The position numbers were made by a program, and so were the translations under genes. A DNA stretch of 64,000 nucleotides from Escherichia coli (GTDB taxonomy: Bacteria > Pseudomonadota > Gammaproteobacteria > Enterobacterales > Enterobacteriaceae), in the NCBI RefSeq assembly GCF_003334765.1, contig NZ_QOWT01000002.1; one strand, written 5' to 3'. The notes under the pieces were generated by a model, which worked only from the letters and a program-made list of their open reading frames with translations, searched no databases and was not told where the DNA came from. Positions 24,158 to 55,503 of the stretch are shown here, piece by piece. Position 1 is the stretch's first letter; every line of letters starts with the position of its first letter.

Positions 24158-24241
24158 TTAATTTCGATTATTTTTCCCGGATGGAAAATTCTTAGAAACC
24201 GATCACATACAGCTGCATTTATTAAGGTTATCATCCGTTTC

Positions 24242-24328
24242 GCTGAAAAACATAACCCATAAAATGCTAGCTGTACCAGGAACCACCTCCTTAGCCTGTG
24301 TAATCTCCCTTACACGGGCTTATTTTTT
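24242..24328 (+). ncRNA. cyaR: CyaR (RyeE) Hfq-dependent sRNA
   Basis: gctgaaaaacataacccataaaatgctagctgtaccaggaaccacctccttagcctgtgtaatctcccttacacgggcttatttttt matches the CyaR sequence as I remember it, including the terminator hairpin and U-tail. Confidence 0.8.
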
Positions 24329-26145: not shown

Positions 26146-26181
26146 ATGCCGGATGCGGTGTAAACACCTTATCCGGCATAC
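26146..26181. repeat. REP element
   Basis: atgccggatgcggtgtaaacaccttatccggcatac between convergent yegS and gatR. Confidence 0.6.
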
Positions 26182-26190
26182 AGAACAATA

Positions 26191-26970
26191 CTACACCGTA
26201 ATTAATTTCACCCGTGTCTTCTGCAATGCCAGTTTATCCACCTCTGACACAGCATCATCTGTAATAATAATGTCAATTTTTTCGATTGGCAGTACCTGAT
26301 TAAAACCGCGACGGTTAAATTTCGATGAATCGAGAACGGCAATCACTTTATTAGCGGCGGTGACCATTGCACCGCTAATCGAATAACCTTCATTAAAGGT
26401 CGTAATACCATTAACCGCATCAATACCATCAGCACCGACAAACATTAAATCGGCATTAATATCCTGCAATGAACGCTCGGCAATGGAACCATGCATCGAG
26501 CGCGTTTTATGGCGGACCGTGCCACCACAGACGACCAGAGTAATGTCTTTATTTTCGGAAAGGGCAAACGCTGCCGGGAGACTGTTGGTAATCACCGTGA
26601 TATTTTTAGCGGTCATTAATCCTTCGGCGATAAGCATTGTGGTACTTCCGCTGTCGAGAATAACGGTCATCCCTTCATGGATCATTTTGACTGCCGCCTG
26701 CGCTATTCTGTTTTTTGGCGCGCTGGCGAGCTGAAATCGCTCTTTAAACCCGACTTCCTGGGTCTCGGTTTCACTATTACCGGACATTATTTTCGCCGCA
26801 CCGCCATGAAAGCGCGTAACCACGCCTTTTTGTTCGAGAAAGCGCAAATCGGCACGGATTGTCGCTTCCGAGGCAGCAAATACTCCCGCCAGATCCTGAA
26901 CAAGCACGGTTCCCTGTTCATTCACTAATTGGATGATCTTATTCCTTCGCTCGAATGAATTCATCGTCAT
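26191..26970 (-). CDS. gatR: DeoR-family repressor of the galactitol operon GatR, uninterrupted
   Basis: 259-aa continuous ORF with an N-terminal HTH and a DeoR C-terminal sugar-phosphate binding domain. Confidence 0.88.
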   Translation of the reverse strand: MTMNSFERRNKIIQLVNEQGTVLVQDLAGVFAASEATIRADLRFLEQKGVVTRFHGGAAKIMSGNSETETQEVGFKERFQLASAPKNRIAQAAVKMIHEGMTVILDSGSTTMLIAEGLMTAKNITVITNSLPAAFALSENKDITLVVCGGTVRHKTRSMHGSIAERSLQDINADLMFVGADGIDAVNGITTFNEGYSISGAMVTAANKVIAVLDSSKFNRRGFNQVLPIEKIDIIITDDAVSEVDKLALQKTRVKLITV

Positions 26971-27069
26971 TTACCCATATTCAATTGTGGCTAGTGTAAA
27001 CGAAGGGGGACCATTGGTGAATGATCTGTTTTGCACAATACCGGTCCAGCATCACGCTGGCCCGCGGTT

Positions 27070-28110
27070 TCATGGAATGAGCAACACTTTGCCCGGCATG
27101 GCATTACGAGCGATGTCACGCACCGCCTGGGTGAAGCTTTCAAAGCTTCCACGGTGAGCGATTAATGGCTCCAGGCTTAACTTACGTTCTGTCAGCAACC
27201 GGCTCGCCGTTTCCCACTCCTGCCCCGGCCAAGGGCTGGAATAGTTCATCCAACTGCCGATAACCGTCAGCTCTTTACGCAATATTTTGCCAAACGTTGC
27301 CGATGTTAAATGCAGATCCTGATGCAACGTGCCCACCAGCGCCAGTTGGGCATGAGGACCGGCAATCTCTACCGCCAGTTCGACAGTTTGCGGTACGCCA
27401 GCCGTCTCGAGGATAAGCTGATTAAAACGCAGTTCGCGTAAAACGCTCTGCATTTGCGGCGCGCTCATTTCGCTACTGTTAAATGTTTGCATCGCACCGA
27501 AAGATTTTGCCAGTGCCAGTTTTTCTGAGCTAATGTCGATAGCCGTCACACTCTTTGCTCCCAGCGCGACAGCGCACTGAATAGCCAGCAGGCCAATGGT
27601 TCCGGCACCAATAATAATAACGTTTTTATTCTCACAACCTTGCGCTAAATGAAAAGCATGCAGACCAACGGTAATCGGCTCAATAAAAGCCCCATCCTCA
27701 ATAGGCATATCCGTGGGTAGAGCAAAGACATTTTTTCGCTTAACGACAATATATTCAGCAAATCCACCATCACGCCGCGAGCCAATAAAATCATATTTTG
27801 CGCACTGGGAATAAAACCCTTTCAGACACTCTGGACAAGTAAAACAGGGTAATAACGGCACACAGGCAACCGCATCGCCAGGGTGTAAATCATCAACACC
27901 GGATCCCACCGCATCAATATAGCCGCTAAATTCATGGCCTAACGTTATTGGATAATAATGTGCACCATTTTTAAATATCCTGGGTAAATCGGAACCACAT
28001 AAGCCCGAGCTGGCAATTTTTACCCGCACCTCATCCTGATGTTTAATTTCAGGAATGACGCTTTCTGCAACGCGCACGATACCATCAGTATCATTCACCA
28101 CTGATTTCAT
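27070..28110 (-). CDS. gatD: Galactitol-1-phosphate 5-dehydrogenase
   Basis: 346-aa Zn-dependent alcohol dehydrogenase family protein. Confidence 0.92.
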   Translation of the reverse strand: MKSVVNDTDGIVRVAESVIPEIKHQDEVRVKIASSGLCGSDLPRIFKNGAHYYPITLGHEFSGYIDAVGSGVDDLHPGDAVACVPLLPCFTCPECLKGFYSQCAKYDFIGSRRDGGFAEYIVVKRKNVFALPTDMPIEDGAFIEPITVGLHAFHLAQGCENKNVIIIGAGTIGLLAIQCAVALGAKSVTAIDISSEKLALAKSFGAMQTFNSSEMSAPQMQSVLRELRFNQLILETAGVPQTVELAVEIAGPHAQLALVGTLHQDLHLTSATFGKILRKELTVIGSWMNYSSPWPGQEWETASRLLTERKLSLEPLIAHRGSFESFTQAVRDIARNAMPGKVLLIP

Positions 28111-28157
28111 AAAAACTCCTGATTGTTAAGGGGGATAACCTCCCCCTCAGGTAAAAA

Positions 28158-29513
28158 TTATTCTGCGAGAACGACTTTCTCTTGTTTAATAAAGCCACGC
28201 GCTCTACGCCAGGTCATGAAAATACCGGTCAGATAAATTGCACCGATAATAATGAAACCGGGAATATTTTGCGGGGAGAAAACCTGAATCAGTAACCAGG
28301 TAATGGGAGAACCGCCCTGATCCATTGAAGCCACCATACCCCCGGCTTTTAACGCCCCAGCATTAGCCGCCAGTTGGGTGTGCAAACCAATAGTTTGCGT
28401 CGCGATCCACAGGGTGATGCTCATAATGATGACACCCGAGATTAAGGTGCGGAACAGATTTCCACGATGCACGGCGACCGCCATCGCCACGAAGAAGCCG
28501 ATGGTGGCAAGATCGCCAAACGGCAGCACCTGATTACCCGGCACACAAACAGCAATTAAAATGGTGAGTGGGATAAAAATCAGGCTTGCCGATACCACCG
28601 CCGTATGTCCCAGCAGCAACGCCGGATCAAGGCCAATCAGGAACTCCTGACCGCCGAACTTCGCCTGTAAACGACTACGAGCCTGCTTAGCGATGGGCGT
28701 TAAACCATCCATGATGGGTTTAATCACCCGTGGCATTAGCAGCATCACTGCCGCCGTTTTTACCGCCAGCTGCAATACACCTTTGACATCGTAACCCGCG
28801 AGGATGCCGATAATCAGCCCCATCACAAAACCCACGGTGACAGGCTCGCCAAATGGACCAAATTTGCGCTGAATATCGTCGGCGCTAAATTTAATTCGGT
28901 TAACGCCTGGGATTTTCTCGATGATAGCATCGACCAGCACCGCAATCGGCCCCATATACGCCGACGTACCGTGCGGAATAGCAATACCTTCCAGCTCAAA
29001 GAAATTTCGGGTATCGCGGGCAAACCAGTCGCCGAGCTTATAAACAAACGCCGCGTGAATTACCACACCTGCCATCCCTATCATCCATGAACCGGTTGCC
29101 AGATGCAGCAACGCGCCGGTGAAGGTCATATGCCAGATATTCCAGATATCAACATTTACCACCCGCATCATACGGGTCAGTAACATCGCCACGTTAACCA
29201 GAATCGCAATCGGAATCGCCACCAGCGCAATTTGCGACGCCCAGGTCATTGGTGAAGAGCCCGGCCAGCCAACATCGACCACATGCAGATTCAGGTCGAA
29301 ATTTTCCGCCATCGCTTTCGCCGCCGGGCCAATGGAATCCAGCATTAAGCCAATCACAAGGCCAATGCCAACAAAGCCAATCCCGATATGCAGACCCGCT
29401 TTAAAGCAATCGCCTGCCTTCATGCCTAATATTTTAGAAAAAATAATGATGACAATCGGCAGCATCACCGTAGGGCCGAGGTCGAGAATATAACGCATGA
29501 CTTCTGAAAACAT
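28158..29513 (-). CDS. gatC: PTS galactitol-specific EIIC
   Basis: 451-aa polytopic membrane protein. Confidence 0.92.
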   Translation of the reverse strand: MFSEVMRYILDLGPTVMLPIVIIIFSKILGMKAGDCFKAGLHIGIGFVGIGLVIGLMLDSIGPAAKAMAENFDLNLHVVDVGWPGSSPMTWASQIALVAIPIAILVNVAMLLTRMMRVVNVDIWNIWHMTFTGALLHLATGSWMIGMAGVVIHAAFVYKLGDWFARDTRNFFELEGIAIPHGTSAYMGPIAVLVDAIIEKIPGVNRIKFSADDIQRKFGPFGEPVTVGFVMGLIIGILAGYDVKGVLQLAVKTAAVMLLMPRVIKPIMDGLTPIAKQARSRLQAKFGGQEFLIGLDPALLLGHTAVVSASLIFIPLTILIAVCVPGNQVLPFGDLATIGFFVAMAVAVHRGNLFRTLISGVIIMSITLWIATQTIGLHTQLAANAGALKAGGMVASMDQGGSPITWLLIQVFSPQNIPGFIIIGAIYLTGIFMTWRRARGFIKQEKVVLAE

Positions 29514-29516
29514 AGG

Positions 29517-29801
29517 TCACCCCTGTAAGATAGTCAGAATTTTATTTTGTAATGCTTCGATACCGATACCAGAAATAAAAGGCATGCCGTGAACTAACGG
29601 AATATCGCCAAAACTACGATCCACTTTGGCAGTGGTGCATATCAAATGCACACCATCCATATAGGTTTCTATTTCATTAACCCGACACTGGATTAATTCA
29701 ACAGGAATATTATGATTCTGACACAACTCTTTAATTTCTTCCGCCGCCATCGTAGAGGTCGCAACCGCGCCTCCGCAAGCGACAATAATCTTGCGTTTCA
29801 T
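29517..29801 (-). CDS. gatB: PTS galactitol-specific EIIB
   Basis: 94-aa [19 protein letters not shown] with active-site Cys. Confidence 0.92.
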
Positions 29802-29831
29802 AAATAGTCCTTTTTATTGTTACAGAGGGAT

Positions 29832-30284
29832 TTATTCGTCTGAATCTAAAACATACTTTGTGAAGTATTCCTTTAACTGGGTTTCAGGAAGAGTGATTAG
29901 TGTCTCGACGATATCGGGCTGTTGTAACTTGCCAAATAAACAGCGTAAAAGTTTCAATTGCTGCTGCGGATTTTCCACAATCAACGCAATAACCAACGAT
30001 ACCGCCACGTCGTTATCATCATCCGCTTGCTGAAAATGAACTTTATTTGTTGGCCTTAACAGATAAATGGCTGACGACTTAGCATGAATCGCCTCACAAT
30101 GCGGTATTGCAATAGCGTGCTGCTCAAGCATTATCCCGGTAGGGAATTCTGCTTCTCTGGCAATTAATGCCTGTGGCCAGGTATCATGAACCACACCTTT
30201 GGCGAGCATCTCATTACCGATATGGGTTAAAACTTCGCTACGATCGACAAAAGAAATTCCGCTACGAACAAACAGGTTAGTCAT
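29832..30284 (-). CDS. gatA: PTS galactitol-specific EIIA
   Basis: 150-aa ORF. Confidence 0.92.
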   Translation of the reverse strand: MTNLFVRSGISFVDRSEVLTHIGNEMLAKGVVHDTWPQALIAREAEFPTGIMLEQHAIAIPHCEAIHAKSSAIYLLRPTNKVHFQQADDDNDVAVSLVIALIVENPQQQLKLLRCLFGKLQQPDIVETLITLPETQLKEYFTKYVLDSDE

Positions 30285-30293
30285 ATACCGTCC

Positions 30294-32493
<2,200 letters not shown>

Positions 32494-32606
32494 TTAAATA
32501 TCGAGATAACGATCACAAAAACAACAATATGAAAATTGTTCGAGGAGTGAAAGGCAAAAAAACGGCCTCCCGATAGGGAAGCCGTAGCAAAGTGCGCGTG
32601 TTTTTA

Positions 32607-32725
32607 TGCCGGATGCGGTGTAAACATACGTGGCAGTGCTATGTAGGCATGATAAGACGCTTCAGCGTCGCATCAGGCATAGGTTGCCGGATGCAGCGTA
32701 AACGCCTTATCCGTCCTACGGGGTG
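32607..32725. repeat. Cluster of REP elements (BIME) between fbaB and gatY
   Basis: Several copies or variants of gccggatgcggtgtaaac and cgcatcaggc palindromes. Confidence 0.6.
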
Positions 32726-51708: not shown

Positions 51709-54700
51709 ATGAGACACTTTATCTATCAGGACGAAAAATCACATAAATTCTGGGCGGTGGAGCAACAGGGAAACGAGTTGCATATCAGTTGGGGAAAAGT
51801 TGGCACCAAAGGGCAAAGTCAGATAAAAAGTTTTTCAGATGCTGCGGCAGCGGAAAAAGCGGAACTTAAGCTGATTGCGGAGAAGGTGAAGAAGGGGTAT
51901 GTGGAGCAAGCGAAGGATAATTCTTTGCAACCTTCCCAAACGGTAACGGGCTCTCTCAAGGTAGCGGACTTATCCACCATTATTCAGGAACAACCCTCTT
52001 TCGTAGCAGAAACCCGTGCGCCTGACAAAAATACAGATGCTGTTTTACCGTGGCTGGCGAAAGATATTGCTGTCGTTTTTCCGCCCGAAGTTGTACACAC
52101 CACGTTAAGTCATCGCCGCTTTCCCGGAGTTCCTGTTCAGCAAGCAGACAAATTGACCCAATTACGTCGCTTAGCCTGTAGTGTGTCGCAACGGGATAAT
52201 AAAACAGCCACATTTGACTTCAGCGCCTGTTCTTTAGAATGGCAAAACACCGTCGCCCAGGCGATCAGTCAGATCGACGGCCTGAAAACAACACAGTTAC
52301 CATCACCAGTAATGGCTGTACTCACGGCACTTGAAATGAAATGCACAAGATATAAAGTGCGTGAGGATGTTATGGATCAGATCGTCCAGGAAGGCGGTCT
52401 GGAATATGCTACTGATGTAATAATACACCTTCAACAGATTGATATTGAATGGGATTATGCGAATAATGTCATTATTATTCTGCCGTCTGGCATTGCACCT
52501 AGCTACTTGGAGCAATATTCCAGATTTGAATTACGCCTACGTAAACATTTATCACTGACGGAAGAGTCTCTCTGGCAAAAATGTGCACAAAAACTTATTG
52601 CCGCAATTCCACATATTCCAGAATGGCGGCAACCATTAATTGCTTTGTTATTACCCGAAAAACCAGAAATTGCACATGAAATTGCCCAGCGTCTACTGGG
52701 GCAAAAAAAATTACCCTCGCTTGAGTGGTTAAAAATAGTGGCGACTGATGAGCACATTCTTGCCTCATTAGAAAAATATCACGAACCATATGCCATTTTT
52801 GATGATTACTATTGTGGTGCGATATGGTCAGCCACCGTATTACAGGAGCAAGGTGTTGCAGCCCTGCCCCGATTTGCTCCCTATGCCGCAAGTGACTACT
52901 GCGCCGATGTGTTGCGTCATATCAATCATCCGTTCGCATTGACACTGCTTATACGTGTAGCCGGGCAAACTAAACGCTGTCACGATCGGATGACGAAAGC
53001 CATTGCTGCGTTCCCACATGCAGCAATGGCGGCACTGACGGAACTTCTTGGGCAAAAAGAAGAGAACAGTTGGCGCATTATGCTAATGACAATGCTTATC
53101 TCACAACCAGCACTGGCAGAACAGGTCATTCCCTGGCTCTCGACACCCGCAGTTGCCGTACTGAAATCATGCCAGCAACAACTGACACAGCCCTCAAACC
53201 ATGCCAGCGCCGATCTACTGCCAGCCGTAGTAGTCTCCCCTCCCTGGCTTTCGAAAAAGAAAAAATCGCCGATTCCGGTGCTGGATTTAGCGCCATTAGG
53301 CATTGAGCCAATCTGTTATCTGACAGAAGAAATCAGTAATCAACTTTTGGCGAAATATATCTGGTATTCAAAACACATCACGGTTAGCCATGAAGAAAGT
53401 ACTACCAACCTGTTGGCAAGGATGGGTTTTCAACGACGGATCGCTGGTACATATATTAAAGCTCCCGAAGCGGTAGTTGAGGCATGGCTAAATGAAGATT
53501 ATTCAACCTTACTAAGTGAATTTAAGGTGTTTCATTCACCTACCGGGCATTATTGGCAGTTGGGGATTTTGACAACATTGCCGCTGGAGAAAGCAGTAAA
53601 AGCATGGAATGCCCTTACCCTATCTCCACATACCGATACCGAATACTCCATGTTACATTTTGGACTCAAAGGGTTACCTGGGTTAGTAAACTCACTTGCA
53701 CGCTATCCACAAGAAGCCTTGCCCATCACGAATTACTTCGCAGCGAGTGAGCTGGCTCCTGCCGTCGCCCGTGCCTTCAACAAACTGAAAACGCTACGCG
53801 AAAACGCCCGTAGCTGGCTGTTGAAATACCCGGAACATGCCCTTACCGGCCTGCTGCCTGCGGCGCTCGGCAAAGCCGGTGAAGCACAGGATAACGCCCG
53901 CGCTGCCTTGCGTATGCTTACCGAAAACGGTCATCAGCCATTACTGCAAGAAATCGCCCGACGTTATAACCAGCCGGAAGTAACCGATGCGGTGAACGCT
54001 CTGCTTGCGCTCGATCCCTTAGATAATCACCCGACAAAAATCCCCACTCTTCCGGCCTTTTATCAGCCATCGCTCTGGACGCGCCCGGTATTAAAAGCAA
54101 ATGCCCAATCACTGCCAGATAGCGCCCTCCTCCACCTCGGTGAAATGCTCCGCTTCCCTCAGGAAGAGGCTCTGTATCCGGGATTATTGCAGGTGAAAGA
54201 CGTCTGTTCCGCCGACTCACTGGCGGGATTTGCCTGGGATCTGTTTACCGCCTGGCAGACCGCTGGCGCGCCGTCGAAAGAGAGTTGGGCGTTCACTGCG
54301 TTAGGCGTTCTCGGTAACGATGACACCGCCCGCAAACTGACGCCATTAATACGCGCCTGGCCTGGTGAATCCCAGCATAAACGCGCCACCGTTGGGTTGG
54401 ATATTCTCGCTGCTATCGGTAGTGATATCGCCCTTATGCAGCTTAACGGCATCGCCCAGAAACTGAAATTCAAAGCATTACAGGAGCGGGCAAAAGAAAA
54501 AATTGCCGACATTGCCGAGAGCCGCGAACTCACGGTGGCGGAGCTTGAAGATCGGTTAGCACCGGATCTCGGTCTGGATGATAACGGTTCGCTGCTGCTG
54601 GATTTTGGCCCACGGCAGTTCACCGTCAGCTTTGATGAAACCTTAAAACCGTTTGTGCGTGATGTTTCCGGCAGCCGCCTGAAAGACCTGCCCAAACCGA

Positions 54701-55503
54701 ACAAAAGCGATGATGAAACGCGGGCGAACGATGCGGTTAACCGCTACAAATTGCTGAAAAAAGATGCGCGTACCATCGCCGCCCAGCAGGTAGCAAGGCT
54801 GGAATCCGCCATGTGCCTGCGCCGCCGCTGGTCGCTGGAAAACTTCCAGCTCTTCCTGGTTGAGCATCCGCTGGTTCGTCACTTAACCCGCCGTCTGATT
54901 TGGGGCGTTTATAGCGCCGAAAACCAGCTACTGGCTTGCTTTCGCGTAGCAGAAGATAACAGCTCCAGCACCGCTGACGATGATCTTTTCACCCTGCCGG
55001 AAGGCGATATCTCTATCGGCACTCCTCACGTTCTGGAAATATCACCAACGGATGCTGCCGCCTTTGGTCAGCTTTTTGCCGACTACGAACTGCTACCACC
55101 GTTCCGCCAGCTCGACCGTAACAGCTACGCCCTGACAGAAGCCGAGCGCAATGCCAGTGAACTGACCCGCTGGGCAGGCAGAAAATGCCCGAGTGGTCGG
55201 GTCATGGGGCTGGCGAATAAAGGCTGGATAAAGGGCGAACCACAGGATGGAGGCTGGATCGGATGGATGATCAAACCTTTGGGTCGCTGGTCGTTAATCA
55301 TGGAAATCGATGAAGGCTTTGCGGTAGGCATGTCGCCAGCCGAACTCAGCGCTGAGCAGCTCTTAAGCAAGCTGTGGCTATGGGAAGGCAAAGCAGAAAG
55401 ATATGGCTGGGGGAGTAATTCAACACAGGAAGCGCAGTTCTCCGTAATCGATGCCATCACCGCCAGCGAGCTAATTAACGATATTGAAGCCCTGTTTGAA
55501 TAA
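51709..55503 (+). CDS. molR: MolR-family WGR-domain / DUF4132 protein, full length
   Basis: Uninterrupted 1264-aa ORF; N-terminal WGR-like segment (KFWAVEQQGNELHISWGKVG); C-terminal region paralogous to YehI. Confidence 0.85.
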   Translation: MRHFIYQDEKSHKFWAVEQQGNELHISWGKVGTKGQSQIKSFSDAAAAEKAELKLIAEKVKKGYVEQAKDNSLQPSQTVTGSLKVADLSTIIQEQPSFVAETRAPDKNTDAVLPWLAKDIAVVFPPEVVHTTLSHRRFPGVPVQQADKLTQLRRLACSVSQRDNKTATFDFSACSLEWQNTVAQAISQIDGLKTTQLPSPVMAVLTALEMKCTRYKVREDVMDQIVQEGGLEYATDVIIHLQQIDIEWDYANNVIIILPSGIAPSYLEQYSRFELRLRKHLSLTEESLWQKCAQKLIAAIPHIPEWRQPLIALLLPEKPEIAHEIAQRLLGQKKLPSLEWLKIVATDEHILASLEKYHEPYAIFDDYYCGAIWSATVLQEQGVAALPRFAPYAASDYCADVLRHINHPFALTLLIRVAGQTKRCHDRMTKAIAAFPHAAMAALTELLGQKEENSWRIMLMTMLISQPALAEQVIPWLSTPAVAVLKSCQQQLTQPSNHASADLLPAVVVSPPWLSKKKKSPIPVLDLAPLGIEPICYLTEEISNQLLAKYIWYSKHITVSHEESTTNLLARMGFQRRIAGTYIKAPEAVVEAWLNEDYSTLLSEFKVFHSPTGHYWQLGILTTLPLEKAVKAWNALTLSPHTDTEYSMLHFGLKGLPGLVNSLARYPQEALPITNYFAASELAPAVARAFNKLKTLRENARSWLLKYPEHALTGLLPAALGKAGEAQDNARAALRMLTENGHQPLLQEIARRYNQPEVTDAVNALLALDPLDNHPTKIPTLPAFYQPSLWTRPVLKANAQSLPDSALLHLGEMLRFPQEEALYPGLLQVKDVCSADSLAGFAWDLFTAWQTAGAPSKESWAFTALGVLGNDDTARKLTPLIRAWPGESQHKRATVGLDILAAIGSDIALMQLNGIAQKLKFKALQERAKEKIADIAESRELTVAELEDRLAPDLGLDDNGSLLLDFGPRQFTVSFDETLKPFVRDVSGSRLKDLPKPNKSDDETRANDAVNRYKLLKKDARTIAAQQVARLESAMCLRRRWSLENFQLFLVEHPLVRHLTRRLIWGVYSAENQLLACFRVAEDNSSSTADDDLFTLPEGDISIGTPHVLEISPTDAAAFGQLFADYELLPPFRQLDRNSYALTEAERNASELTRWAGRKCPSGRVMGLANKGWIKGEPQDGGWIGWMIKPLGRWSLIMEIDEGFAVGMSPAELSAEQLLSKLWLWEGKAERYGWGSNSTQEAQFSVIDAITASELINDIEALFE

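Follow-up and report, generated by a model that had tools for sequence, protein, structure and literature searches.

The gat cluster in the DNA studied here ends with an uninterrupted gatR, and we regard it as highly probable that this open reading frame is the wild-type, functional gene for the DeoR-family repressor of the gat operon, standing as the last gene of gatYZABCD-gatR between fbaB and yegS. The window, by which we mean the whole 64,000-nucleotide stretch of Escherichia coli DNA that was analysed, contributes several lines of evidence to this reading: the open reading frame is intact, its product has the domain architecture of the family, the gene order is that of the known locus, the protein is the same, residue for residue, as that of an allele whose function has been proven elsewhere, and the structural genes that it would control are themselves intact.

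Results

The gat cluster and its last gene

The minus strand of the window carries gatR, gatD, gatC, gatB, gatA, gatZ and gatY from 26191 to 32439, and the cluster is flanked by yegS (plus strand) on its low side and fbaB (minus strand) on its high side. The features that the following text relies on are these:

26191–26970, minus strand: gatR coding sequence, 259 aa if translated from the first ATG, 257 aa (WP_001295426.1) from the second ATG at 26964, which PGAP takes as the start
26257–26718, minus strand: C-terminal DeoRC sensor/oligomerisation domain of GatR, residues 85–238 (Pfam PF00455, E 4.1e-51)
26666–26668, no strand assigned: empty IS3E site in gatR, a GTC that is duplicated in K-12 MG1655 around IS3E (1258 bp)
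26791–26949, minus strand: HTH_DeoR domain of GatR, residues 8–60 (Pfam PF08220, E 2.9e-16)
26971–27069, minus strand: gatD–gatR intergenic spacer, 99 bp, one base of which (27045) differs from K-12 and HS
27070–28110, minus strand: gatD, galactitol-1-phosphate 5-dehydrogenase, 346 aa, intact
28158–29513, minus strand: gatC, PTS galactitol IIC, 451 aa, intact
29517–29801, minus strand: gatB, PTS IIB, 94 aa, intact
29832–30284, minus strand: gatA, PTS IIA, 150 aa, intact
30294–31556, minus strand: gatZ, 420 aa, intact, identical to HS
31585–32439, minus strand: gatY, tagatose-bisphosphate aldolase, 284 aa, intact, identical to HS and K-12
32440–32561, minus strand: gatY promoter-operator region, where GatR presumably binds, with a CRP-like site at 32502–32517 and a private SNP at 32523

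In the direction of transcription the order is gatY, gatZ, gatA, gatB, gatC, gatD and then gatR, which begins 99 bp past the gatD stop and thus occupies the 3' end of gatYZABCD, between gatD and yegS. An earlier note on this DNA had described the repressor gene as lying upstream of gatDCBAZY; in transcriptional terms this is wrong, as all gat genes are on the minus strand and gatR is downstream of gatD. None of the six structural genes is shortened, and each has zero to two substitutions relative to E. coli HS. At position 116, GatC has Met in the window and Thr in 14EC001, HS and K-12 (T116M). The neighbouring fbaB reading frame is intact, with a 2-bp indel in the T-run of its terminator, and two palindromic elements of REP type are located around the cluster, one read from the sequence at 26148–26179 between the convergent yegS and gatR, the other at 32646–32716 between fbaB and gatY, which scores as Rfam naRNA4.

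The open reading frame listing of the window gives a single frame at 26191–26970 on the minus strand, 259 aa long from an ATG start and free of internal stops. Together with the Pfam HTH_DeoR and DeoRC matches, this bears out the earlier description of a DeoR-type repressor in a single 259-aa frame, and the product has both hallmarks of the DeoR/GlpR family, the DeoR-type helix-turn-helix at the N terminus and DeoRC at the C terminus. The start codon is ambiguous: it may be at 26970 or at 26964, the latter being the one used by RefSeq/PGAP for gatR in 14EC001 and E. coli HS, and good Shine–Dalgarno spacing is absent at both candidates. The extra MT residues of the 259-aa form sit before the helix-turn-helix domain and do not matter. 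Among solved structures, the only sequence match is to 7l6l (E 1.9e-11), in which the deoxyribose operon repressor is represented by its C-terminal domain. In public data, the exact 259-aa and 257-aa sequences are each found on at least 1000 contigs, in some sources under the name "DeoR family galactitol utilization operon repressor".

Comparison of gatR alleles

For comparison with K-12, we rebuilt its gatR by taking out IS3E and the 3-bp duplication (one GTC). The 774-nt coding sequence of the window aligns without gaps to HS, to 14EC001 and to the rebuilt K-12 gene, meaning that no frameshift had been missed, and the frame contains neither an insertion sequence nor a frameshift nor a stop. 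The encoded protein matches HS GatR, and likewise K-12 GatR without IS3E, at every residue, which makes it an ortholog of the named gatR. At the DNA level there are 12 differences from each of the two, all 12 synonymous and none non-synonymous, and this pattern indicates purifying selection on the protein. The gene is 100% identical in DNA to that of 14EC001, where it is annotated as a DeoR/GlpR regulator beside gatD, and the protein differs from that of the phylogroup-B2 strain NRG 857C by a single amino acid, I196V.

The K-12 gene, which the earlier note had described as disrupted by an insertion element, is indeed so annotated: in RefSeq, MG1655 gatR (b4498) is a pseudogene of two fragments parted by IS3E with insE5 and insF5. 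Our alignment places the break after codon 100 of the 257-aa protein, within the DeoRC domain, and the product left in K-12 is 110 aa long, keeping the helix-turn-helix and losing the sensor domain.

The absence of insertion sequences extends beyond gatR. By megablast, the window is collinear with the annotated DNA of 14EC001 and HS, only 84 bases at 4212–4235, 8470–8519 and 63991–64000 being unaligned, and the aligned spans of these two genomes contain no transposase annotation apart from IS1A in the yehH of 14EC001. That element is absent from the window, the alignment breaking at 53607–53615 with a 9-bp overlap. To the resolution of the PGAP annotation, then, the earlier statement that the window has no insertion sequence holds. 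The yehH-like DUF4132/WGR gene at 51709–55503, interrupted by IS1A in 14EC001, is here intact and encodes 1264 aa.

Intact gatR across E. coli

A gatR match is present in 5110 of 5426 complete E. coli genomes, every match being at least 95% identical. It is uninterrupted in 4757 of the 5426 (about 88%), where "uninterrupted" stands for a match unbroken over at least 80% of gatR; this count is an upper bound, because in the survey pieces separated by as much as 890 bp are merged and an insertion the size of IS1 (768 bp) would still be scored as uninterrupted; point frameshifts likewise escape counts of this kind. The K-12 junction of gatR and IS3E, searched with a 141-bp probe covered over at least 80%, is found in 345 of the 5426 genomes, and these account for nearly all of the approximately 350 split copies; the three full-junction examples listed, ER1709, TOP10 and 11202, are laboratory or source-less strains. 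With 4757 genomes sharing the uninterrupted state, an intact gatR is the norm of the species and the broken copy of K-12 MG1655 the exception, and the idea that the intact gene is a peculiarity of this strain is not borne out.

The remaining 316 complete genomes have no gatR match. In LR-45, genes for ribitol/D-arabinitol utilisation stand between yegS and fbaB in place of the whole gat cluster including gatR (locus L008, 31740–42718), and replacement of this kind probably explains many of the 316. Ribitol/arabinitol genes are a long-known alternative occupant of the gat locus. A different loss is seen in BL21(RP) (locus L003, 4001–4642), in which gatR breaks off at nucleotide 549, next to a fragment of tynA; this rearrangement has nothing to do with the IS3E event of K-12.

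Regulation of the gat operon

In the logic of the DeoR/GlpR family, it is a phosphorylated intermediate of the controlled pathway that releases the repressor. Applied to the gat cluster, this suggests that the N-terminal helix-turn-helix of GatR would bind operator DNA in the approximately 120-bp gatY promoter region and keep gatYZABCD off; galactitol would enter through the GatABC phosphotransferase system, and a phosphorylated intermediate, galactitol-1-phosphate or tagatose-6-phosphate, would bind the DeoRC domain and release the repressor, with cAMP-CRP probably assisting transcription. Here the inducer, the operator position and the part played by CRP are those that knowledge of the DeoR family would lead one to expect. 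As for gatR itself, transcription may reach it from the gatY promoter or may start at a promoter of its own.

The effect of losing the repressor is well covered by published work. Expression of gat in MG1655 is constitutive because an insertion sequence interrupts gatR, and when the native gatR of HS, amplified from yegS to gatD, was put in MG1655, the gat operon became regulated; afterwards, new insertions in gatR arose in the mouse gut, producing constitutive mutants (PMC5850726). Expression of gat was found to be higher in MG1655 than in the K-12 strain NCM3722, and this was ascribed to a disruption of gatR found "only in this strain" (PMC3045373). The insertion-sequence disruption of K-12 gatR has likewise been linked to constitutive gat expression in PMC9189660 and, with the element named as IS3E, in a 2026 preprint (bioRxiv 10.64898/2026.01.05.697630). 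All four sources back the earlier claim that the insertion in K-12 makes gat constitutive. The same preprint reports that CRISPRi silencing of gatR is beneficial in LF82 and CFT073, which implies that natural strains with an intact gatR have an active repressor.

As the GatR of the window is identical to the HS allele that restored regulation in MG1655, a repressible, galactitol-inducible gat operon is a well-founded prediction for this strain, made from its sequence. The expression measurement that had been proposed as a check on gatR has in effect been done for this very protein, by way of the HS allele in MG1655 (PMC5850726).

The gatY promoter region and alternative readings

The intrinsic terminator of fbaB at 32562–32585 bounds the gatY promoter region upstream, leaving about 120 bp, over which the window shares 99% identity with K-12 and HS. 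Across E. coli, the sequence of this region varies far more than that of gatR: by megablast, 3777 genomes match it, 617 of them at only 80–90% identity. None of the 5426 complete genomes has a 100% match to the 125 bp at 32436–32560, and the best match, 99.2%, is found in 21 genomes including ETEC B7A. In the alignment, the GAAAACGAAAAC variant is common to the window and B7A. Position 32523 is different in that its C-to-T change (minus strand) is private to the window; it lies seven bases upstream of a CRP-like TGTGA, and the block around it is invariant in K-12, HS, 14EC001, B7A and NRG 857C. A scan with the CRP consensus gives a two-mismatch site at 32502–32517, a weak match that is not statistically distinctive, the window as a whole holding 15 such matches when 24.75 are expected from shuffles. 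Promoter scans upstream of gatY and of gatR returned nothing at the 9-of-12 level, and simple scans of the gatD–gatR spacer detected no consensus promoter and no intrinsic terminator. Besides 27045, the alignment of the spacer to K-12 and HS contains a second difference at 27073, within the last codons of gatD. A repeat search for a candidate GatR operator in 32430–32570 produced only short AT-rich inverted repeats of the TTGTTTT type, which we found unconvincing.

The private change at 32523 is the only reason why our confidence in standard gat regulation is less than full. Conceivably, gatR is intact and gat regulation nevertheless departs from that of the standard wild type because of this cis change, which could make the operator constitutive or strengthen or weaken the promoter or the CRP site. 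The invariance of the surrounding block across five genomes, one of them from phylogroup B2, speaks for such an effect, as do the lack of a perfect match for the 125-bp region and the proximity of the SNP to the CRP-like site. On the other hand, we are dealing with a single base change, perhaps a neutral one private to this DNA, perhaps an error of sequencing; natural alleles such as that of 14EC001 have five differences within the same 120 bp, and the CRP-like match does not stand out statistically. Altered regulation through 32523 is, in our judgement, improbable. If true, an effect of the change on GatR or CRP control would mean galactitol regulation unlike that of the standard wild type despite an intact gatR.

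We give still less credit to the view that the gatR frame is intact but silent or non-functional, being poorly expressed or lacking a promoter, and that the operon is constitutive as in K-12. The scans do fit it, neither a consensus sigma-70 promoter nor a good Shine–Dalgarno sequence having been found for either start, but the spacer and start region are the same as those of HS and K-12 except for the one spacer base at 27045, the yegS-to-gatD fragment from HS was enough to restore regulation (PMC5850726), and the 12 synonymous changes set against none that are non-synonymous argue for selection on the protein; the view is very unlikely to be right. That the frame encodes another DeoR-family paralogue, AgaR, SrlR or GlpR, instead of GatR, hardly needs to be entertained. 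Its best NCBIfam matches are indeed AgaR (232.9 bits) and SrlR (226.3 bits), but both fall below the curated whole-protein cut-offs of 260 and 350, respectively, and the synteny and the 100% protein identity to K-12 and HS gatR settle the matter. No GatR-specific NCBIfam model was returned for the frame, and this, with the AgaR and SrlR equivalogs below cut-off, fits the generic product name that PGAP gives to gatR. A functional, wild-type GatR is the reading that we retain.

Other features of the window

Several observations elsewhere in the window concern differences from the reference strains. The diguanylate cyclase gene dgcE (yegE, 874–4180) carries an 11-bp deletion relative to 14EC001, near 3065–3071, which splits the gene into open reading frames at 874–3153 and 3056–4180; the deletion allele is found in two of 5407 complete E. 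coli genomes, LR-45 and BS15R-A, and the dgcE of LR-45 is flagged as "frameshifted" by PGAP. The gene yegJ is absent (8470–8519), and yegI (6574–8523) abuts pphC (8511–9272); as the same junction is found in 3472 of 5426 complete genomes, this difference from K-12, HS and 14EC001 is a common polymorphism. In K-12, cyaR is followed by the P2-remnant cryptic prophage PR-X (ogrK, yegZ); this prophage is missing at 24311–24328, where the window directly joins positions 1201 and 1813 of the K-12 locus (L004); the CyaR RNA is at 24240–24325.

Two loci belong to type I toxin–antitoxin families. Three tandem SIB antitoxin RNA units of the ibs/sib repeat occupy 10075–10880, in contrast to the K-12-like genomes HS, 14EC001 and LR-45, in which two ibs genes are annotated. 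An OrzO-P antitoxin RNA of the zor-orz family is located at 59643–59718, between yehK and yehL.

Discussion

The intact gatR is the ordinary wild-type state of the locus and reveals no new biology; the disruption in K-12 and its consequences are already known and well documented. What the comparison does underline is how atypical K-12 MG1655 is at gat, with gatR broken by IS3E and gatC frameshifted, and annotation or physiology carried over from this strain would give a false picture of natural isolates. In the mouse gut, galactitol regulation affects fitness, as has been documented (PMC5850726; bioRxiv 10.64898/2026.01.05.697630), and knowing that the gat genotype is of the regulated type helps in interpreting colonisation experiments.

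Among known systems, the closest is that of E. coli HS and wild-type isolates, which have the same GatR protein (WP_001295426.1 in HS) at the same position between yegS and gatD. The flanking regulatory DNA of HS is like that of the window except for a few SNPs, and the window is set apart from HS by the 12 synonymous changes in the coding sequence, the private SNP 32523 in the gatY promoter region and the T116M substitution in GatC. The strain 14EC001 shares the gatR allele to the last base, whereas its gatC, gatZ and gatY alleles differ from those of the window. K-12 MG1655 has the same locus and, with IS3E and the 3-bp duplication taken out, encodes the same GatR, but its gatC is a frameshifted pseudogene and that of the window is intact. 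More distantly, AgaR, SrlR and DeoR share with GatR the two-domain architecture of HTH_DeoR and DeoRC, and the similarity of GatR to AgaR (E 3e-69) and SrlR (E 4e-67) extends over the full length; these regulators control operons other than that of GatR, and their release by a phosphorylated intermediate is, from what is known of the family, presumably the same.
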